NCBI GenBank assembly: GCA_965223705.1
Contig: OZ245015.1
Location: 4,478,234 to 4,542,233, forward strand
Reading direction: 5' to 3'
Origin: Myxococcota bacterium
GTDB taxonomy: Bacteria; Myxococcota_A; UBA9160; UBA6930
Length of the DNA stretch: 64,000 nucleotides
Under the pieces are notes generated by a model. That model saw nothing but the letters and a program-made list of their open reading frames with translations. It did no database searches and had not been told where the DNA came from. This document shows positions 30,176-38,458 of this stretch, piece by piece. Each line of letters begins with the position of its first letter. Positions within the stretch are counted from its first letter, which is position 1. The position numbers were made by a program, and so were the translations under genes.

Positions 30176-31303
30176 ATGAGCGACGGAACCCCGAAAGGCG
30201 CTTGCTGGCCGGACCGGCAGGACGCCCAGCTGCTTCGGGCTTGCTTGCTGCCCGACGGCCGAGGTGCCGAGGCCTACCGCCGCTGGCGGGCGTCGGTGGA
30301 TCTCAAGACCATGCGCCATCCGTGGCTGCGGCTGATGCCGCTGCTACAACACAACCTCGGCCGGCTGGGCATCGCGGACGCGGAGCAGGATCTTCTGCGT
30401 GGAGTCTTGCGCCAATCGTGGTTTACAGGCCAGGTCGCGACGGCTCGTGCCGCACCGATCCTGCAGCGGATGGACGCGAACGGGATACCCACCATGGTTC
30501 TCAAGGGTGCGGCTCTGGCCGAGCTCTACTACGAGAACCCCGCGTTGCGTCCCATGGAGGACTTGGACGTGTGCGTGCCGGTCGCGCGGGCGCCCGAGGC
30601 ATTCGCGCTGATGCAATCGGCGGGCTACCGGCCAGGCGATTACGGCTTTGAACCGACGTTTCCGACCTGTCAGCTCCGTTCCCATGCCTGGGGTTTTCGC
30701 GCGGAGAACGACCACGAGTTGGATTTGCACTGGCATGTCTTGCCCGCCGCCCGGTGGGACGACGCCGACCGAGGGTTCTGGGCCGACAGCCGGCCCTTCG
30801 AGCTGGGCTCCGTCGCCACGCGCACGCTATCGGCGGAAGACCATGTCCTGCACGCGTGCGTCCATGGAACGACTTGGAATCAAGGCCACATCCTCCACTG
30901 GATTGCCGACGTGGCGACGATTGTGCGGCGCGTGGGAGACCGCTTCGACCCTCGCGTGCTGATCGATCGAGCGCGGCAACTGGGCGTCGTGTCGCACCTG
31001 AAAGCCGGCCTGTCTTACGTGCACGGACTTCTCGACGTTTTGCCGCAACACGTGGTCGCGGCACTCCGACGCGTCCGTCCACAACTGAGCGATCGCGTGA
31101 GCTTCTTCTACCGTCGCAACGAACGCAGTTCGTCGGCAGGCGCGATGGCGTTGCAGCTCTTGTTCTGGCATCGCGAACGACACGCCCGTGCGAAAGACCG
31201 TTGGCTCTCCTTTCCGGCCTACCTTCGCGAGTATTGGCGGTGCGATTCCAACTGGTCCATGGCCCGCCGCGCGTTGCGTGCGATGAGCGGGAAGAGCGCA
31301 TGA
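30176..31303 (+). CDS. Nucleotidyltransferase family protein (NTP_transf_5-like)
   Basis: MVLKGAALA..Y..LRPMEDLDV, ELDLHW, HACVHG, WIADV. Confidence 0.85.
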   Translation: MSDGTPKGACWPDRQDAQLLRACLLPDGRGAEAYRRWRASVDLKTMRHPWLRLMPLLQHNLGRLGIADAEQDLLRGVLRQSWFTGQVATARAAPILQRMDANGIPTMVLKGAALAELYYENPALRPMEDLDVCVPVARAPEAFALMQSAGYRPGDYGFEPTFPTCQLRSHAWGFRAENDHELDLHWHVLPAARWDDADRGFWADSRPFELGSVATRTLSAEDHVLHACVHGTTWNQGHILHWIADVATIVRRVGDRFDPRVLIDRARQLGVVSHLKAGLSYVHGLLDVLPQHVVAALRRVRPQLSDRVSFFYRRNERSSSAGAMALQLLFWHRERHARAKDRWLSFPAYLREYWRCDSNWSMARRALRAMSGKSA

Positions 31304-31980
31304 AAACTCGAGCCGACGCCGCAATCAGTGTGATCATCCCGGTCCACAACCGCGAGGCCTTGCTCCCCGAGACCCTGGCGTCGGTTTGGGCTCAGACGCT
31401 CGCGCCGGCCGAAGTCATCGTGGTCGACGACGGCTCGACCGACAACTCCGTGCGGGTGGCGAAGCGCTGGCGCCCTCACGTCCGAGTCGCGTCGCAGTCG
31501 CAACAGGGACCGGGCGCGGCCCGCAACGCGGGCATCGCCTTGGCGTCCGGTGATCTGCTGGCCTTTGTCGACTCCGACGATCTATGGCCCGAAGATAAAC
31601 TCGAGAAGCAGGCCGCTGTCCTTGCAGAGCGACCCGAACTGGACATGGTCTTCGGTGCCGTTGAACAGTTTGCCGACCCCGACGTGACGGAGCGCGGGGG
31701 AGCTTTCGATCCGACGGCGGCGTCGATGGCTCCGCATGTCGGTACCTTGGTCGCCCGGCGCCACTGTTTCGAACGCGCCGGTTCGTTCAATCCAAAGTGG
31801 AAAAACGGCGAATTCATCGACTGGTTCGGTCGCGCCCAAGATGCCGGGTTACGCCACGAGGTGTTGCCATGCCGCCTGCTGCGCCGCCGTATTCACGCCG
31901 GCAATTTGATGCGTCAGACCGGAGACGAACTCGACTACGCCCGCATCCTGAAAGCCGCAATCGATCGACGCAGGGGCTGA
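31300..31980 (+). CDS. GT2 glycosyltransferase
   Basis: SVIIPVHN, VVDDGSTD, AARNAG, FVDSDD. Confidence 0.92.
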   Translation: MKTRADAAISVIIPVHNREALLPETLASVWAQTLAPAEVIVVDDGSTDNSVRVAKRWRPHVRVASQSQQGPGAARNAGIALASGDLLAFVDSDDLWPEDKLEKQAAVLAERPELDMVFGAVEQFADPDVTERGGAFDPTAASMAPHVGTLVARRHCFERAGSFNPKWKNGEFIDWFGRAQDAGLRHEVLPCRLLRRRIHAGNLMRQTGDELDYARILKAAIDRRRG

Positions 31981-32017
31981 GCACCTGCCCGCGTTTTGTG
32001 GCATAAACGAGGGTCTT

Positions 32018-32512
32018 ATGCCGCGTTTCCTTCGCCCCGCCGGCCCACACATCTCGGTGTCCATCCTCGACGGCGAGCTCGTCGCTATCGACCTGGCATC
32101 CGGTAGCTACTACCACGCGGGGGTCGTCGGCGCCCAGATCTGGGAGCTCGCTTCGACGCAGGTAGAAGCGCAGGACATCGCGACCCGACTGGCGGACCGC
32201 TATCCCGGCGTCGACCAGGTGATCGATCACGTAGGTGCGTTTCTGGATCAACTGATCGAGAGCGGCCTGGTGAGCGAACACGAGACACCCGGGCCGGTCG
32301 ACGGGCCACCGTCGCAACCCGCCGAACCGCCGGCAGGCTCGGGCGCCTATGAGCCGCCCAATCTCGGTCGCTTCGACGACATGCAGCAACTGCTCCTGTT
32401 GGACCCGATCCACGATGTCGATCAGTCCGGGTGGCCTGTAAGCCATGAGAATGCCCCGACCGCCGACACGACGAAGGTTGCGGCGAAGGGCTCCTCCTCC
32501 GGAGCTTCGTGA
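32018..32512 (+). CDS. PqqD/RRE-domain protein with C-terminal leader-like tail
   Basis: LDGELVAIDLASGSYY..VGAQIWEL..FLDQLIESGLV RRE pattern, Pro-rich linker, then YEPPNLGRFDDMQQLLLLDPIHDVDQSGWP. Confidence 0.8.
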   Translation: MPRFLRPAGPHISVSILDGELVAIDLASGSYYHAGVVGAQIWELASTQVEAQDIATRLADRYPGVDQVIDHVGAFLDQLIESGLVSEHETPGPVDGPPSQPAEPPAGSGAYEPPNLGRFDDMQQLLLLDPIHDVDQSGWPVSHENAPTADTTKVAAKGSSSGAS

Positions 32513-33609
32513 CGCACAACCCGCCGGGTCCGGAATACCGCGCGTTTGTCGCTTCCCTGGTGGCACGTGCACGAGCCGCAATCGACAGCCACGCCGCGAA
32601 ACCCCGTACCTGCGAACCGGTGCAGCTGAGGCTGGACGACGATCGACTGGTCGTCCGCTGCGCTGGCGCAAGCGTCTCCGAGCGATTGCTCCCCGCCTTC
32701 GCAGGCCTCCTCTCTCCGCACCGAGAAGCAGGCGGCGAAACCGACGCGATACCTGCGGTGCCCGAAATTCTCGCGTTCGACACCGCGTCGAGCGGCATCC
32801 AACCGCCGCCCCCTCCTTTCCCGTTGCAGGCCATCCGCGAGCGCGGCGTCGTCGAAGCAGGGGATGGCTTGACCATGGCCTTCCAGGTGGGCGCCGACAC
32901 CTTGAGCGTCTGGGATGAAGGGCAGCAACGGGGTGTCTTCTGGACCCGGGATGCCGAAGCGTTGCCCTACTACGAGACGGGGGCTCCGCTGCGCCATCTG
33001 CTCCAGTGGTGGGGCGCCGGCCGCGGGTGGCAACTGGTACACGCTGCCGCGGTCGGCACGCGAGCCGGCGCCGCGCTACTCGTCGGCCCCGGGGGTTCGG
33101 GGAAATCCACCTGCGCACTGCGATGCCTGGGGTCGCGCCTTTCGTATCTGGCGGATGACTACTGCATGGTCCGGCGCGAACCGACCGCTCGGGTGCACGC
33201 CCTGTACACCACCGCCAAGGTCAAGAACGATTACACCACGCACGCTGCATCCCTTGCGAAAAGCCTCAGCTCGACCGCGCACATTCGGGCGGAAAAGCGG
33301 TTGTACTTCCTGCATCCTCAGCACGAGGAGCAACTGCTCGCGGCCGCTCCTCTCGCGATGATTCTGGTGCCGACCATCCGGACGCAAGGCGAACTGCGCA
33401 CCGAGCCTTTTCCGCGGGCGATGGCGCTCGCCGCATTGGCGCCGTCATCGATCTTCCAGGTCGCCGGCGCAGGTTCTTCTAGTTTTCGCTTTTTGACGAT
33501 GCTCGTCGCGGACCTTCCGTGTCGGCGTTTGTTGCTGGGCCCCGACATGGCTCACCTCTCCGAAGTCATCGAAGGCGCGCTCGCCGAAGCCTCGGAGGGT
33601 GGCTCATGA
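32509..33609 (+). CDS. HPr kinase-related P-loop kinase
   Basis: LVHAAAV, GPGGSGKST, YLADDY. Confidence 0.85.
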   Translation: MTHNPPGPEYRAFVASLVARARAAIDSHAAKPRTCEPVQLRLDDDRLVVRCAGASVSERLLPAFAGLLSPHREAGGETDAIPAVPEILAFDTASSGIQPPPPPFPLQAIRERGVVEAGDGLTMAFQVGADTLSVWDEGQQRGVFWTRDAEALPYYETGAPLRHLLQWWGAGRGWQLVHAAAVGTRAGAALLVGPGGSGKSTCALRCLGSRLSYLADDYCMVRREPTARVHALYTTAKVKNDYTTHAASLAKSLSSTAHIRAEKRLYFLHPQHEEQLLAAAPLAMILVPTIRTQGELRTEPFPRAMALAALAPSSIFQVAGAGSSSFRFLTMLVADLPCRRLLLGPDMAHLSEVIEGALAEASEGGS

Positions 33610-34331
33610 AACCGATCGTGTCCGTCATTATCCCGGCGTACAACGCAGCCGCGACCTTGCAGCGGAGCGTCGATTCCGTGCTGAGCCAGGATGTCGACAA
33701 GATGGAAATTCTGGTCGTTGACGACGGCTCGACTGACGACACACCGAAGGTAGCGACACAACCAGCGCTGCGGCTTTTCAGCCAGAGCAATCGCGGACCC
33801 GCCGCCGCGCGGAATCGCGGCATTGCGGAAAGTCGCGCGGATCTCGTTGCGTTCCTCGACGCAGACGACACATGGCCCGCCGGCGCGCTGCGACACCAGC
33901 TCGCGATGATGCAACGCGACGAGAGCGTCGACGTGCTCTTGGGTCACACCGATCACGCTCCACTGGCGGGCGGCACGCCCGGTCGCTTTTTGACGTTTCT
34001 GATCGGTGCCGCGTTGTTCCGCCGCACGGTCTTTGATCGCGTAGGAATGTTCAACGAGGAGCTCCGCCGCGGCGAAGACGTCGATTGGTTCATGCGCGCG
34101 CGCGAAGTACCGATCAACTTGCGTATCAGCGAGCGCACAACACTCACGTATTGCCACGATACGCGCCGGCCGGATAGTCCGGCGCAAGCCGGGCCCGAGG
34201 TGCTTGCCGCGATGCTGAAACGTTCTCTCGATCGAAGGAAGAGCGTCGGCGAGGCGACGGACTTGCCCCCGATGGACGCCGCGCGGCCCCTCCCGCGCAA
34301 GGCCCGCGAACCGGGCAGCCGCGATGGATGA
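33606..34331 (+). CDS. GT2 glycosyltransferase
   Basis: SVIIPAYN, VVDDGSTD, FLDADD, GEDVDW. Confidence 0.92.
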   Translation: MKPIVSVIIPAYNAAATLQRSVDSVLSQDVDKMEILVVDDGSTDDTPKVATQPALRLFSQSNRGPAAARNRGIAESRADLVAFLDADDTWPAGALRHQLAMMQRDESVDVLLGHTDHAPLAGGTPGRFLTFLIGAALFRRTVFDRVGMFNEELRRGEDVDWFMRAREVPINLRISERTTLTYCHDTRRPDSPAQAGPEVLAAMLKRSLDRRKSVGEATDLPPMDAARPLPRKAREPGSRDG

Positions 34332-35010
34332 AGTCGTCCCTGTAAGCTTGGTCGTCGCGGTTCGCAACGGCGAGGATTTCATCGCCGAAGCGCTCGAGAG
34401 CGCGACTCGCGGGCCATGCGTTCCTGCGGAGATTCTGGTCGTAGACGGGCATTCCCGGGACAACACACGCGCCATTGCCGAAAGCTTCCCGCGCGTACGG
34501 TCGGTTGTGCAGCGCGGAAATGGGATCTCCGACGCCTACAACCAGGGCATTCGAGAAGCTCGTTGCGACCTGATCGCGTTCTTATCCCACGACGACAAGT
34601 GGGCCCCTGACAAACTGGCGACGCAACTCCGCCACCTCCGGGAGTCGCCGACGACGGACGCGGTCGTCGGGCGCGCCCGCCATTTCCTGCAGCCGGGGCA
34701 CGCCCTCCCGGCGGGCTTTCGGCCCGAGCTGCTGCGCCAAGACGTGGACGCGTTCATCATGGAGACATTGCTGGCTCCCCGATCGACGTTTGACCGTGTG
34801 GGTCCCTTCGACACGACGCTTCACACGGCACACGATGTGGACTGGTTCTCACGGGCGCGGGACATGGGCCTTCGAATCGACGTCGTGGCATCGGCGCTCG
34901 TACACAAACGCGTCCACGGTGCGAACAGTTCGTTGAGCGCGCAAGACAACACCGCTCAACTGATGCGCGTGGCGCACGCCGCCATCCGGCGCAAGCGCGA
35001 CGGCGGCTAG
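34324..35010 (+). CDS. GT2 glycosyltransferase
   Basis: VVAVRNGE, VVDGHSRD, FLSHDD, HDVDWF. Confidence 0.88.
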   Translation: MDEVVPVSLVVAVRNGEDFIAEALESATRGPCVPAEILVVDGHSRDNTRAIAESFPRVRSVVQRGNGISDAYNQGIREARCDLIAFLSHDDKWAPDKLATQLRHLRESPTTDAVVGRARHFLQPGHALPAGFRPELLRQDVDAFIMETLLAPRSTFDRVGPFDTTLHTAHDVDWFSRARDMGLRIDVVASALVHKRVHGANSSLSAQDNTAQLMRVAHAAIRRKRDGG

Positions 35011-35020
35011 GGCTGTGGGC

Positions 35021-36316
35021 TCACGCCTTGGGGAGGTCTTGAATTTCTGATTGCAGCCACAGCTTGCAGGCGATCAGAGCCCGGAAGCTGTGGTAGCTCG
35101 ACTTCCACGGAAAACTCATCCAACCACACGGCTCTCCGTACACGCCGCGGATCAGCGGTCGACCGCGCGAATCGACGTTGTAGTACCACTCTCCCAATCG
35201 AGGATGACGCTGCTTGGTGTCTAGCCACTCGAGCACCCGGTCAAACATGGTGAGGAACTCGGGCTCGCTCGACAATCGGTAGGCGACCATCAAACCGTTG
35301 AGCGCTTCAAACTGGGTCCAGATGTTTGCCGTCTTTTTTCGAGGGCGCCCCGTGAGCGGCGCTCCCGAGTAATACCACTTGCCCAAGCGCCGATCGAAGG
35401 CCCGCCGACTGGTGCTTCGGGCCAGGGCGAGAAGAGGCTCGGTGATCTGCTCGTCGTCTTGCCACCCGAGACGAGAAGCGGATTGCCAGAGCAAATAAAC
35501 GACCTCGATGTCATGTCCGTACTCGACCTCGTGATGGTCGATCAGCGTCCAATCTTCTCGGTACGCCTTCGAGCAGAACGTTTCTCCGGACATGTGTACG
35601 ATGGCCTTCTGACCGATCAGCTCCACCTGTCTCTCGAAGACCCGCTGGGACGGCGCCAGGCCCGGGTGGGCGTTCTGCTGATTCGCCTCGAACAACTCCC
35701 CGACGGCCTCTAGGAGGTGCATCTGCGTGTTGATCTCTTTGGGCTCTCTGGACCAGCCTCCCGGGTAGCGCGTCTCGTCGAAACCATTTTCAGGGTCCCA
35801 AGATTCTCGGACCACTTTTTCAAAGACGCGATTGACCAGTTCCAAAGCTTCCGAACCCGACTCTCGACCCGAGAAGGCGGTCGCAAAGTTCGAGAGACCG
35901 AAGATGCAAAAAGCTACGGGGTAGTGGTGTACTTGACCCTGCCCCGGTTCACCCTCGGCCGAAACCCTGCGGTGGAACCAGTTCGATGCCGGATCGTAAA
36001 AACAGTCGCGGACGAAACGGAACTGCTGATGGCAGATTCGAGCAATGGATTCTGAGCTCTCGATGAAGCGAAAGATCTGGGAGAACGACCACAGATGCCT
36101 GACTTGCTGAATCAAGTCCTTGTCGGCGCCCGGTACGGGTCGACCTTCCAGATCGACTAAGCCGTAGAAACCCCCGTTCGCCTCATCCACCCGCGCCCGC
36201 CAAAAAGAGAGGCTTTCCCGGAGCATCCGGGAGAGAAGTCGGTGGCGGGATTCCAGGAAGTGGCGGTCGAGCGCGGTCGGGGCGTGACGCCGCTTGAGCC
36301 CGAGCCGGGAAGCCAC
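35021..36316 (-). CDS. AGE-family epimerase/isomerase (cellobiose 2-epimerase-like)
   Basis: NGGFYG, QQVRHLWSFS, NTQMHLLEA, YGHDIE, WKSSYH. Confidence 0.88.
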   Translation of the reverse strand: MASRLGLKRRHAPTALDRHFLESRHRLLSRMLRESLSFWRARVDEANGGFYGLVDLEGRPVPGADKDLIQQVRHLWSFSQIFRFIESSESIARICHQQFRFVRDCFYDPASNWFHRRVSAEGEPGQGQVHHYPVAFCIFGLSNFATAFSGRESGSEALELVNRVFEKVVRESWDPENGFDETRYPGGWSREPKEINTQMHLLEAVGELFEANQQNAHPGLAPSQRVFERQVELIGQKAIVHMSGETFCSKAYREDWTLIDHHEVEYGHDIEVVYLLWQSASRLGWQDDEQITEPLLALARSTSRRAFDRRLGKWYYSGAPLTGRPRKKTANIWTQFEALNGLMVAYRLSSEPEFLTMFDRVLEWLDTKQRHPRLGEWYYNVDSRGRPLIRGVYGEPCGWMSFPWKSSYHSFRALIACKLWLQSEIQDLPKA

Positions 36317-36336: not shown

Positions 36337-36768
36337 TCAGTCAGCCAACTCGGCGGCAAGTTCGGTCACAGTGACGCAACCGCAGACCTGCCCATCATCA
36401 TCGAGAAATTCGACGAGCGTGTCATCCACCCCGCGAAAACTCGCGTAGGCCATTGCACCATTGGGAAAGAACTCTTCGTGTTCGTCGTTTGCGGGCTGGT
36501 AGTAGTAGTCCCCGGGTTTGTACACGCAATCCAGGGTGAGGTTGTGGACCTCGCCCTCGAGCACAAGCGCGTGGGATTCGCAGCGATGGCGATGCAGACC
36601 GGAGCGGTAACCCGGAGCGAGCTTGAAGATCAGCTCGGCGAAATGTCGCTCTACGTCCACGGCGAGTACCTTGATCGCGACACCCTCGGCGGCCTCACAC
36701 CAGCCGGCGTCGCGGGTCGGGCCCTTCGCGATTTGTAGGGTCTGCGGAAATGATGCGGCGGCACTCAT
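36337..36768 (-). CDS. Cupin protein (2,4'-dihydroxyacetophenone dioxygenase/ChrR-like)
   Basis: GLHRH..PGDYYYQPANDEH. Confidence 0.78.
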   Translation of the reverse strand: MSAAASFPQTLQIAKGPTRDAGWCEAAEGVAIKVLAVDVERHFAELIFKLAPGYRSGLHRHRCESHALVLEGEVHNLTLDCVYKPGDYYYQPANDEHEEFFPNGAMAYASFRGVDDTLVEFLDDDGQVCGCVTVTELAAELAD

Positions 36769-36840
36769 CGATCGTCCTTCCTTCGAGCGGGTCTCTGCAG
36801 TATCTCCGAAACGGTGGGCGAGATCCACACGCGCACGGCT

Positions 36841-36856
36841 CGGCATGACTCTTGCT
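36841..36856 (+). promoter_or_regulatory. Sigma-54 promoter (-24/-12)
   Basis: CGGCAT-GACTC-TTGCT just upstream of ATG 36869. Confidence 0.7.
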
Positions 36857-36868
36857 GACAATCGACGT

Positions 36869-38458
36869 ATGGAGCCGATCCCGCGAACCATCGAGGCGCT
36901 TCCGGATGGGCTGGTTGCGGCTCTCGATACGATCGGGAGCCCCGTCGAGCGCATCGAGACGCACATCTCCCACCTGGCCCTCACCGAAGGCCGTGTCTAC
37001 AAGCTCAGGAAAGCCGTCGCCTTCGATTTCGTGGATTTCGGTCGACGTGAGACACGGATGCGAGATTGCTGGAACGAAGTCCTTCTCAACCGCCGCTTGG
37101 CGCCGCGTGTCTACCTCGGAGTCGCTCCGTTCGAGCCGTACGAGAACGGCTTCCGCGTTGGAGAGATCGTCGACCCGGCGAGGATGCCCGTCGAAACAGC
37201 CGAGCGAGATTGTGAATGGGTCGTTGTGATGCGGCGTCTTCCGACGGGTCGGGACGCCGAATCGCTCTGGCACCGCGGCGATCTCGCGGAGGAACATGTC
37301 GACCGGCTCGCAGAGCACCTCGCGAGGTTCCACCGGGACTCGCGATCGGATCGTGGCTCGGGCGACCCCACAGATACCGTTCGCACCGTACTCCGATCGA
37401 TTCGCTCCCTCGAGGGCGCCGCTCGCTCGGACGCGAGTGCACGACTCGCCTGGTTGGTCCGGGAGTTCGAGATGCTCCACGGAAAGCTCTTTGCGGAGCG
37501 TCGCGCAGAAGGACGCTGGGTCGACGGCCACGGCGATCTGCGCCTCGAGCACGTGTGGTTCGATGATGCCAAAGAACCCGAAATCATCGACTGCGTCGAA
37601 TTCTCTGAAGATCTCCGCCTTGTCGACGCCGCGAACGAAGTTGCTTTCCTTTCGATGGATCTGCGCTTTCGCGGCGCCCATGCCCTCGCGGAACGCTTTC
37701 TTGCAAGCTACGCCGCCGCGGCCGACGACTTCGGGATCTATTCGGTCCTGCGCTACTACGAGGCCTACCGCGCGGCCGTGCGCGCCAAAGTGAGCGCGTT
37801 GCGTAACGAGGGCACACCCGAAGCGGAACGTCAGAGAGATCGCTATTTGGGCCTTGCGACACGCCTTCTCTCCGCACCCGGCCAAGGTCTGGTCATCGCG
37901 ACGACGGGGCACATCGGGTCCGGTAAGAGCAGCATCGCAGCGGAGCTCGCCCGCCGACTCCCCGCCGTCGTGATCCGTTCCGATGTCGTTCGCAAGCAGC
38001 TAGCGGGTGTCGAGCCGACGACCTCGCTTGCGACTTCATGGGGAGAGGGCAACTACAGCCTCGATCAGCGATCGAAGATCTACGACGCTCTTTTCGCTCG
38101 TGCGGAAGCCCCTCTGAATTCCGGACGTCACGTGATCCTCGACGCGTCCTTTGGTCGCCGCTCATGGCGCGACGCGCTCGCCGCCTGGGCCGCGTCTCAC
38201 CGCTTCACGGCCTGGATCGTCCACGCGGAGTGTCCACCTTCGGTGGTGCGGCAGCGACTCATCTTGCGAAGTCGCGAAGGGCGCTCGGCATCCGACGCGG
38301 GCCCTGAGCTCCTCGACCCGAGCCGTGCGGCGTACGAGGCGCCCACCGAGTGGCGCTCCGACCGACTCCGGTCCGTCGACACGGGCCGATCCGACTGGCG
38401 CGGGGCAGGGGTCGCGTCGCTCGCCGCCGATCTACTCGCCGCGCGCCTGTGCTCCTGA
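36869..38458 (+). CDS. Aminoglycoside phosphotransferase-like / AAA kinase fusion (Rv2004c-like)
   Basis: IETHIS, YKLRKAV, NRRLAP, DGHGDLRLEH, IIDCVEF, GHIGSGKS, VILDASF. Confidence 0.9.
   Translation: MEPIPRTIEALPDGLVAALDTIGSPVERIETHISHLALTEGRVYKLRKAVAFDFVDFGRRETRMRDCWNEVLLNRRLAPRVYLGVAPFEPYENGFRVGEIVDPARMPVETAERDCEWVVVMRRLPTGRDAESLWHRGDLAEEHVDRLAEHLARFHRDSRSDRGSGDPTDTVRTVLRSIRSLEGAARSDASARLAWLVREFEMLHGKLFAERRAEGRWVDGHGDLRLEHVWFDDAKEPEIIDCVEFSEDLRLVDAANEVAFLSMDLRFRGAHALAERFLASYAAAADDFGIYSVLRYYEAYRAAVRAKVSALRNEGTPEAERQRDRYLGLATRLLSAPGQGLVIATTGHIGSGKSSIAAELARRLPAVVIRSDVVRKQLAGVEPTTSLATSWGEGNYSLDQRSKIYDALFARAEAPLNSGRHVILDASFGRRSWRDALAAWAASHRFTAWIVHAECPPSVVRQRLILRSREGRSASDAGPELLDPSRAAYEAPTEWRSDRLRSVDTGRSDWRGAGVASLAADLLAARLCS

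Follow-up and report, generated by a model that had tools for sequence, protein, structure and literature searches.

What is made by an operon that joins RiPP recognition parts to three glycosyltransferases? In the window, which is the whole 64,000-nt stretch of DNA that was analysed, six closely spaced ORFs lie on the + strand at positions 30176-35010. The first encodes a nucleotidyltransferase of the PsmN/LppN family (30176..31303; PF14907, NTP_transf_5, 147 bits) with an intact DxD motif (D129/D131), which is followed by GT2a (31300..31980), a member of the universal GT2 clade, the RRE protein (32018..32512), an HprK/PEPCK-fold kinase (32509..33609), GT2b (33606..34331), and GT2c (34324..35010), which represents a third distinct GT2 clade. 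Four of the five gene junctions overlap (ATGA, GTGA, ATGA, and 8 bp), and the remaining one is a 37-bp gap. An initial annotation of this DNA had described a packed set of nucleotidyltransferase, GT2, PqqD/RRE protein, kinase, and two further GT2s, which is confirmed by ORF calls and by recurrence of the set elsewhere. The operon is free of cyclase, B2, and radical SAM genes and encodes no precursor, and a scan for promoters and terminators returned signal at chance level.

Spread and neighbours of the cassette

Among 41 long loci with the RRE protein, the window included, the kinase is present in 39, the nucleotidyltransferase in 36, and the GT2a clade in all 41. Sixteen long metagenome loci repeat this pattern (kinase in 15, GT2a in 15, NT5 in 13), and in most of 80 loci from GTDB the same families are again found beside the RRE, which indicates that the gene grouping is not due to chance. 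The PF14907 family was found in 63/81 loci. A profile of the proposed carrier, the RRE protein, recovered 1,516 clusters (50% identity) at E<=1e-30, and the cassette is carried by at least a dozen phylum-level groups. We conclude that the cassette is a common, widespread bacterial unit that is conserved as a whole. One copy resides on a cyanobacterial plasmid, and cultured carriers include Crinalium epipsammum PCC 9333 (plasmid pCRI9333.04) and Mesorhizobium sp. WSM4976. Viral contigs contained no relative. When a sample of the phylum was searched with a short-tail query, 7/301 genomes matched, including the genome of origin, and the other six matched the RRE body only. Matches to the RRE protein in the ESM Atlas are unnamed PqqD clusters only, NCBI labels it 'PqqD family protein' and nothing finer, and no NCBIfam model spans its tail.

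Glycan enzymes surround the cassette as accessory neighbours: GT4, a sulfotransferase, the AGE epimerase, and the MsbA-type ABC. The MsbA-type ABC exporter is encoded in 25/41 long loci and is absent within 10 kb of the copy described here. Nine tests of accessory-gene pairs in the long loci gave no co-occurrence signal bar one, that of a fatty-acid hydroxylase with the ABC exporter (p 0.03, uncorrected for the nine tests). In this copy, a gene for an AGE/cellobiose-2-epimerase-like enzyme (35021..36316, - strand; PF07221) is convergent with the operon. It is the only PF07221 match in the genome and scores 92 bits against the cellobiose 2-epimerase model NF041848, below the cut-off of 800. The AGE family recurs in 14/81 loci, with 8/15 ORFs co-oriented with the cassette, and the protein carries the epimerase His/Glu motifs. 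The AGE-family epimerase is likely a seventh cassette gene. The earlier six-gene description had overlooked it.

Relation to lasso and LPP systems

The RRE protein comprises a PqqD/lasso-B1-type domain (PF05402, residues 20-85 of 164), a linker, an internal leader of lasso/LPP type (Y111-x-x-P114-x-L116; 32348..32377), and a conserved tail (residues 121-140; 32378..32437). Its fold is closest to lasso B1 proteins (TbiB1, E 1.6e-4, TM 0.84 by target), and leader residues 111-120 are ordered on the RRE in the structure model (pLDDT 95), with a strand at 117-119, which bears out the RRE-leader fusion that the initial annotation had proposed. The RRE is predicted to hold its own YxxPxL leader, so that the groove would be filled in cis. 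Among the features of a lasso system, the B1-type RRE with a [Y/W]xxPxL leader is present as modelled, whereas the cyclase, B2, and a separate precursor with a ring Asp/Glu are missing. Furthermore, the internal leader has Leu in the region where the lasso leader has Thr(-2).

The genome, which is 95% complete, has 0 matches to PF13471 (B2), and its six matches to the cyclase family PF00733 are all at least 0.47 Mb from the operon; no cyclase family recurs in the 81 loci. Among 40 carrier genomes, B2 scores above cut-off somewhere in 15. In 1 of the 40 it is less than 10 kb away from the RRE, and there it belongs to a second cassette that includes another RRE and another kinase. Of the other three PqqD matches in the genome described here, one is in a PQQ operon, one in an M50-protease fusion, and one in a radical-SAM cassette that brings its own precursor. 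The genome has a second RRE/kinase/PF14907 cassette, which is served by an RRE, a kinase, a PF14907 enzyme, and a precursor of its own. These findings agree with the earlier claims that cognate lasso genes are absent elsewhere in the genome and that the operon is a stand-alone lasso-type tailoring arm.

The linear polyphosphorylated peptide (LPP) system of Bacillota (lppA-K-B-S-D-N; PMC13381572) shares with the cassette an RRE, a TIGR04352-like HprK kinase, a PF14907 enzyme of the NTP transferase type, and often an MsbA-like exporter, as well as a YxxP leader, the lack of a cyclase, a neighbourhood of glycan genes, a patchy distribution, and, 18 residues past the Tyr, a candidate residue that is conserved. 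However, LPP has a discrete RRE and a separate YxxPxVLxHQxIxFETxxS precursor, whereas the leader of the cassette is fused behind the RRE and diverges from this consensus past PxL. The SpI/SipW-like leader peptidase of LPP is missing, as is an exporter near this copy, and Asp-Pro replaces the LPP Ser within a tail that is invariant in the cassette and variable in LPP. For the polyphosphorylation of a core Ser that marks LPP, the cassette offers no conserved Ser. The cassette is also found in many phyla, and three dedicated GT2 clades are core to it, whereas the LPP co-occurrence table counts GT2 19 times. Searches with the signal peptidase models TIGR02228/PF00717 in 40 genomes found no match within 10 kb, the nearest being 25 kb away. 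A divergent S24-like ORF escapes both models and therefore served as the positive control of an additional motif scan, which found no credible peptidase in 170 loci. No peptidase travels with the cassette, which makes a released RiPP unlikely. A scan of 170 loci also revealed no recurring small leader-bearing ORF, and the same scan recovered the precursor of a control cassette. Taken together, the cassette belongs to neither the lasso nor the LPP class.

The pseudomycoidin and paeninodin systems (PsmB1/K/N, PadeK, ThcoK; PMC6993621, PMC9266682) likewise share a lasso-B1-type RRE fold, an H-K-D-D kinase motif, a PF14907 enzyme with DxD, and the logic of phosphate followed by hexose. They differ in that the cassette is devoid of a cyclase, B2, separate precursor, or conserved C-terminal Ser, and its kinase is only distantly related to the paeninodin-type kinases (45 bits). 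The models for HPr-rel-A, HprK-related kinase B, and SynChlorMet (TIGR04352, TIGR04353, TIGR04355, TIGR04248, TIGR04249) describe a PqqD-like protein that adjoins an HprK-related kinase, as in the cassette, but all matches to them are weak and far below cut-offs. A literature search, outside of which most subscription journals lie, found no published account of the cassette, its tail motifs, or the chemistry proposed below. The searched passages of PMC7470986, PMC12710340, and PMC10352776 describe RRE-GT fusions or unrelated clusters only and no such cassette, and neither tail motif is present in the searched part of the supplements to the LPP paper (PMC13381572).

The conserved tail and the kinase

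Anchored tails fall into two subfamilies that are 29% identical and have in common an Asp-Pro 18 residues past the leader Tyr, which in this copy is Asp129-Pro130 (32402..32407). Counted from the leader Tyr/Phe, position +18 is Asp in 183/184 tails of the subfamily to which this copy belongs and 119/119 of the sister subfamily (302/303 overall), counts that are partly circular because the search queries contained the tail. In LppA, Y-16 and the phospho-Ser3 are likewise in a +18 register (PMC13381572), which puts Asp129, a candidate phospho-acceptor, in the register of the phospho-Ser of LPP precursors. This register is drawn from a single family, LPP; the target of paeninodin-type kinases is a Ser at the C-terminus (PMC9266682), at +39 in the paeninodin-type precursor examined here. 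D121 of the tail is as conserved as Asp129. Phosphorylation of Ser as in paeninodin and pseudomycoidin, the precedents named in the initial annotation, is not supported by the tail, where Ser/Thr occurs in 0/184 sequences at +16..+22. No conserved Ser/Thr position was found in the tail; Ser/Thr is present at +9 in 151/184 tails, where this copy has Asp, and anywhere in +12..+31 in 136/184. His132 was rejected as acceptor, as that His is invariant in its own subfamily (184/184) and occurs in 3/119 tails of the sister subfamily.

The genome encodes no second tail carrier, the next best match having an E-value of 1.5. Certain proteins feature repeated RRE-leader units that have no tail (P0070-P0072, P0077-P0081), with one tail per protein, which indicates that docking and the tail are separable. 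In RRE-kinase fusions, the tail is internal (P0073, P0074, P0076, P0082).

In the kinase, the H178-K199-D216-D217 motif, as taken from PMC9266682, is intact, and these residues are invariant across 46 kinase sequences. The tail Asp is therefore not needed as a base. The best NCBIfam match is TIGR04352 (E 1e-9, below cut-off), and the model of the small-molecule kinase FomB is matched weakly (E 0.006). The kinase structure model aligns with the two-domain PEPCK fold along its whole length (Z 16.8, rmsd 5.0, 308 aligned) and with HprK (Z 14.5), and as modelled the kinase combines the His, P-loop Lys, Asp-Asp motif, and fold that define the HprK/PEPCK group. LppK, which is annotated with the same TIGR04352, is Ser-specific and refuses Thr and Tyr (PMC13381572). 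The Ser specificity of the characterised kinase relatives speaks against an Asp acceptor.

We also modelled the complex of the RRE protein and kinase, which scored 0.83 versus 0.02 for the best control; the mark used for this score is reached by 116/157 solved and 2/215 mismatched pairs and serves as a rough guide, as own alignments and ligands were used. At least 87% of contacts are shared between runs, with partner pLDDT of at least 80. In the model, helices 302-334 of the kinase receive the RRE sheet, whereas the tail, which is disordered when modelled alone, crosses kinase residues 311-317, the P-loop edge at 194-195, and the N-domain. The confident contacts include none of H178, K199, D216, D217, and K263, and the model therefore does not place Asp129 in the catalytic site. 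Conservation of the kinase interface is no higher than elsewhere (0.48 vs 0.49), and a structure search turned up no solved RRE-kinase complex.

Candidate chemistry and competing explanations

The ED-motif Asp of GT2 enzymes is the presumed catalytic base. GT2a, a 226-aa protein in which a GT2 domain alone was detected, has an intact DxD and Phe172 at the usual position of this Asp, which is present in 2/79 members of its clade versus 67/67 and 48/49 in the other two GT2 clades; the ED motif of GT2b and the base-position Asp of GT2c are intact. The clade of GT2b is fused to the kinase in relatives, and all 17 kinase-fused GT2 domains belong to it. Dolichyl-phosphate mannose synthase (DPMS), which has the GT2 fold and DxD, needs no base for its phosphate acceptor (PMC5526996), and by analogy we infer that GT2a may use a phosphate acceptor without a catalytic base. 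GT2a differs from DPMS in being a single GT2 domain, and the comparison showed no specific sequence kinship between them. PsmN adds hexose to phospho-Ser (PMC6993621). The cassette offers a way into the reaction of PF14907 enzymes; among the published systems, deletion of lppN showed no effect.

Our best reading, with a probability of about 0.4, is that the RRE protein is a tethered, uncleaved carrier that is phosphorylated on Asp129 and then glycosylated. As modelled, the RRE would grip the internal YxxPxL of its own chain and dock on the kinase, with the tail over the P-loop edge and N-domain. The kinase would then use ATP to convert Asp129 to an acyl-phosphate, to which the register and invariance of this residue point, and the first sugar could be added to the phosphate by GT2a, which lacks the base, by the PsmN-like enzyme, or by both, in analogy with DPMS and PsmN. 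GT2b and GT2c would lengthen the sugar chain, and the labile link would permit the glycan to be released or passed on and the carrier reused. More speculatively, the AGE enzyme might epimerise the free reducing end, and the MsbA-type exporter of relatives, absent here, might export the product. Chemically, an acyl-phosphate is a labile anchor for a sugar chain, which counts against the Asp129 carrier. Between the options raised in the initial annotation, i.e., a carrier in a protein-primed system or an activated phospho-substituent, we lean slightly toward a carrier with Asp rather than Ser as the acceptor. It is somewhat unlikely that the entire scheme applies, in which glycan synthesis is primed on aspartyl-phosphate, a RiPP precursor fused behind the RRE has become a recyclable carrier, the HprK/PEPCK-fold kinase now targets the carboxylate of an Asp instead of Ser, and the three GT2s and the PF14907 enzyme build and release a defined phospho-oligosaccharide. 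Should the tail Asp prove to be the acceptor, the cassette would add a new reaction to the HprK family and provide a route to glycans by way of a protein carrier.

The main rival to the Asp129 carrier, a tentative but real possibility, is that the RRE protein stays unmodified and acts as an obligate activating subunit, its former leader having become fixed as the lid that a PEPCK-like kinase needs to be complete. This kinase would act on a small molecule or growing glycan, the nucleotidyltransferase would make an NDP-activated unit, and the GT2s would assemble a surface or storage glycan. The full-length PEPCK match, the weak FomB match, and the lack of catalytic residues among the confident contacts are consistent with such a subunit, as are the glycan enzymes nearby, the internal tail of the RRE-kinase fusions, and a tail far more invariant than the highly variable LPP C-termini (PMC13381572). 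However, the characterised RRE, HprK, and PF14907 sets that were compared all act on an RRE-presented peptide (PMC13381572, PMC6993621, PMC9266682), both subfamilies place their Asp at the LPP acceptor register, and the tail-less RRE-leader repeats argue for a tail that is separable from docking. A tail that is an activator only would mean that RiPP recognition parts have taken on a new role as a subunit of an enzyme.

Conventional linear RiPP synthesis or protein glycosylation is unlikely. Here, the kinase would modify a Ser, Thr, or His of the tail or of a separate protein, sugars would be added, and a housekeeping protease would free the peptide. The enzyme set does equal that of LPP minus the peptidase, many loci encode an ABC exporter, the tail His is invariant in its own subfamily, and most of its tails have Ser/Thr at +9. 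However, this copy has Asp there, no Ser/Thr position is conserved, and the sister subfamily lacks the His; the RRE groove is predicted to be occupied in cis, no peptidase co-occurs, and neither a second tail carrier nor a recurring small leader ORF was found in the genome and the 170 loci, respectively. Finally, it is very improbable that the cassette is what remains of the tailoring genes after decay of a lasso cluster, or that it assists lasso or radical-SAM genes at another site in the genome, as the lasso B1-like fold, the second RRE/kinase/PF14907 cassette, and B2 somewhere in 15/40 carrier genomes might suggest, given that the catalytic motifs are intact, the unit is kept across many phyla, the genome has no B2 match, and its second cassette is self-sufficient.

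Composition and spread of the cassette

The window encodes, on the forward strand, a PF14907 nucleotidyltransferase identified by domain match (30176-31303), the glycosyltransferase GT2a (31300-31980), a 164-aa PqqD/RRE protein (32018-32512), an HprK-related kinase (32509-33609), GT2b (33606-34331) and GT2c (34324-35010). All six ORFs described in the initial annotation were recovered. It had stated that most of them overlap, and four of the five junctions do. The GC content of the operon is in line with that of its flanks. A divergent PilZ gene lies upstream, and an AGE-family (PF07221) gene is convergent with GT2c, with a stop-to-stop spacing of 10 bp. At 36623-38458 on the reverse strand, a long ORF was judged by eye to encode a putative fusion of an aminoglycoside-phosphotransferase-like domain and a P-loop kinase.

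A profile built from 66 relatives of the RRE protein matched 1,516 clusters (50% identity) at E<=1e-30. Among GTDB genomes, 272 stretches with a match were confirmed, and the titles of the best 80, which were analysed, cover at least 12 phylum-level groups. Clustering of the genes in 80 loci and the window revealed GT2 proteins in 78/81, the kinase in 75/81, PF14907 in 63/81, an MsbA-type ABC exporter in 42/81 and AGE in 14/81. When the count was confined to the 41 loci of at least 18 kb, leaving out 40 shorter ones, GT2a was present in 41/41, the kinase in 39/41, PF14907 in 36/41, GT2b in 30/41, GT2c and ABC in 25/41 each and AGE in 6/41. Metagenomes yielded similar lists: the 16 of 80 sampled loci that reached 13 kb contained the kinase (15), GT2a (15), GT2b (13), PF14907 (13), GT2c (10), ABC (9) and AGE (3). 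Gene order varies among loci, which indicates that the gene set rather than its order is conserved, and we conclude that the cassette is a real, conserved unit. A match in only 1/60 related genomes, together with a copy on a Crinalium plasmid, points to horizontal spread. This copy from Crinalium epipsammum (NC_019735.1:5896-17248; L106) also features an FkbM methyltransferase, a TPR protein and a second nucleotidyltransferase, and adjoins a group II intron.

The AGE gene beside GT2c is the only PF07221 match in its own genome, and its product is 22-29% identical to the AGE proteins of other loci. Of the 29 PF07221 match rows listed for 40 genomes, 6 represent five genes that are no more than 10 kb away from the RRE of their locus, and one further match adjoins a second RRE copy. 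Linkage of AGE to the cassette is above chance.

The RRE protein, its tail and the kinase

Residues 1-88 of the RRE protein match the lasso B1-type fold (TbiB1, E 1.6e-4), and a leader, Y111-x-x-P114-x-L116, sits behind a variable linker. AlphaFold2 predicts an ordered leader (pLDDT 95), places a strand at residues 117-119 and gives pLDDT <=60 from residue 121 on, which suggests that the internal leader docks on the RRE. Some relatives (P0070-P0083, P0091, P0095) contain two or three tandem copies of the RRE-leader unit and keep a single tail. In relatives of 780-850 aa, RRE, leader and tail are N-terminal to a fused kinase, which places the tail internally; fusions of this length with three RREs occur among the relatives that repeat the unit.

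A sister subfamily (P0214-P0333; best 120 of 480 matches at E<=1e-8) has a shorter, His-free, Pro-rich tail and is found in the same cassette at loci L188 (G019:C14) and L189 (G067:C9). One Rokubacteria genome, G067, holds five cassette copies with both tail types (L010, L189-L192). Alignment anchored on the leader included 184/196 proteins of the window subfamily and 119/120 of the sister subfamily. Counted from the leader Tyr/Phe, Asp occupies +18 (Asp129 of the window protein) in 183/184 and 119/119, and Pro occupies +19 in all anchored proteins, an invariance that is partly built in within each subfamily because the queries included the tails, and less so between them because it was a match ending at profile position 130 that led to the sister set. 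The tail His is present in 184/184 versus 3/119, and Ser/Thr at +16 to +22 in 0/184 versus 14/119. The two subfamilies are 29% identical and have D121, M122, L125, L126, L128, D129 and P130 in common.

In linear polyphosphorylated peptides (LPP), the accessible text of PMC13381572 describes a LppA leader with Y-16, P-13 and V-11 and phosphorylation at Ser3 alone, 18 residues past the Tyr, which is the position of Asp129. According to its authors, the C-terminal part of that leader makes no contact with the RRE and could be a binding site for the modifying enzymes. The annotation of LppK is TIGR04352, which is also the best match of the window kinase, but under the cut-off. Paeninodin-type kinases use a C-terminal acceptor, at +39 in one precursor, so the +18 register is not universal; because of this, and because LppK did not accept Thr or Tyr (PMC13381572, same text), we infer rather than observe that Asp129 is the phospho-acceptor.

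The kinase retains H178, K199, D216 and D217, the His-Lys-Asp-Asp motif reported for lasso kinases in the accessible part of PMC9266682. Its model (pLDDT 91) aligns with both domains of PEPCK (Z 16.8; 308 residues aligned at rmsd 5.0), whereas the match to HprK (Z 14.5) covers the C-domain. A complex of the kinase, RRE protein residues 1-143, ATP and Mg scored 0.83, whereas the best control scored 0.02; the score mark is reached by 116/157 solved and 2/215 mismatched pairs, counts that apply only approximately to this model. Contact agreement between runs was at least 87%, with partner pLDDT of at least 80. A PDB sequence search with the kinase returned only HprK proteins as relatives, which makes it unlikely that the score was reached by reproducing a complex already solved. 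The model supports binding of the RRE protein to the kinase, with the RRE sheet (10-35) against kinase helices 302-334 and an interface that comprises 119-129, 131 and 134-142 on the tail side and includes 311-317, 194-195 and 92-147 on the kinase side. None of the kinase catalytic residues is among the confident contacts named for the complex, and conservation of the kinase interface is not unusual (0.48 versus 0.49 elsewhere), both of which count against the carrier reading favored below.

Peptidase and precursor searches

The initial annotation had reported no lasso cyclase, B2 peptidase, radical SAM enzyme or separate precursor here. The genome, which is 95% complete, contains no match to the lasso leader peptidase B2 (PF13471), and its PF00733 matches all lie far from the cassette, which extends the absence of cognate B2/C genes beyond the window. 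B2 exceeded the cut-off in 15/40 carrier genomes; in 1/40 it was 10 kb or less from the RRE, as part of a second cassette. At L064:4874-8201, an RRE-B2-kinase-PF14907 cassette lies immediately upstream of a copy of the six-gene type. In none of the 40 carrier genomes did a SipW-type or S24 peptidase match come as close as 10 kb to the RRE. Because these models miss a divergent S24-like ORF in a radical-SAM cassette of the genome that contains the window, we scanned 170 loci for motifs, using that cassette as the positive control. The scan found the control's peptidase motif and precursor, and no credible or recurrent peptidase or precursor in the 170 loci, in agreement with the earlier claim that a separate precursor is lacking. 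Neither a peptidase nor a separate precursor was found near the cassette.

The radical-SAM cassette is in a GT4-rich locus (G000:C1 about 1529800-1533950; L093:9788-13949) and encodes a PF14907 enzyme, PqqD, a radical SAM/SPASM protein, an HprK-like kinase, an S24/S26-like ORF that has no Pfam or NCBIfam match, and a 61-aa, Cys-containing precursor (L093:12431-12616) whose leader is of the YxxPxI type and which carries a C-terminal Ser. The other PqqD matches of this genome are a PqqC-PqqD fusion within the PQQ operon (L094:7381-8320; G000:C1 about 547400) and a protein that joins a PqqD-like domain to an M50/HExxH protease and an HlyD-like adaptor region (L095:7081-9534; G000:C1 about 1655000).

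Glycosyltransferases and possible mechanisms

In a tree of 204 GT2 domains, 195 fell into three clades with about one copy per locus, each holding one window protein: GT2a (79 domains, 75 loci, support 0.68), GT2b (67 domains, 53 loci, support 0.94) and GT2c (49 domains, 45 loci, support 0.97). All 17 kinase-fused GT2 domains belong to GT2b. Metal-binding aspartates are kept in every clade, and the ED-motif Asp, which we take to be the general base, is present in GT2b (67/67) and GT2c (48/49) and in 2/79 GT2a domains; the motif aligns with GGED of chondroitin synthase, within a weak stretch of the alignment. According to the accessible text of PMC5526996, DPMS can do without a catalytic base since it transfers to a phosphate. 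PsmN, the pseudomycoidin PF14907 enzyme, is required for hexose addition to phospho-Ser and has an essential DxD pair (PMC6993621, accessible part), which the window enzyme keeps as D129/D131.

These data establish the cassette genes, their linkage and their motifs. We favor, with a probability of about 0.4, a reading in which the RRE protein is a tethered carrier: the kinase would phosphorylate Asp129 of the tail, a first sugar would be placed on that phosphate, the chain would be extended and the glycan released. It would explain why the tail is invariant and can be internal, why a peptidase is missing and why an epimerase is present. Possibly, the RRE protein instead stays unmodified and activates the kinase; this would cover most of these observations with no need for unusual chemistry, but leaves the +18 register unexplained. 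Modification of a conventional RiPP or of a substrate in trans fits poorly and is unlikely, and a lasso remnant, also a poor fit, is highly improbable. The cassette works like the tailoring arm of LPP and pseudomycoidin, but does not qualify as a member of either family. We found no description of it in the literature searched, including the accessible portions of PMC7470986, PMC12710340 and PMC10352776, and we consider it doubtful that it represents categorically new carrier chemistry.

A fatty-acid-hydroxylase/OlsE-like gene occurs in 8/81 loci (L003, L015, L030, L033, L046, L048, L051, L073), with the ABC exporter also present in all seven long loci that carry it, possibly an indication that certain lineages make a lipid-linked product.
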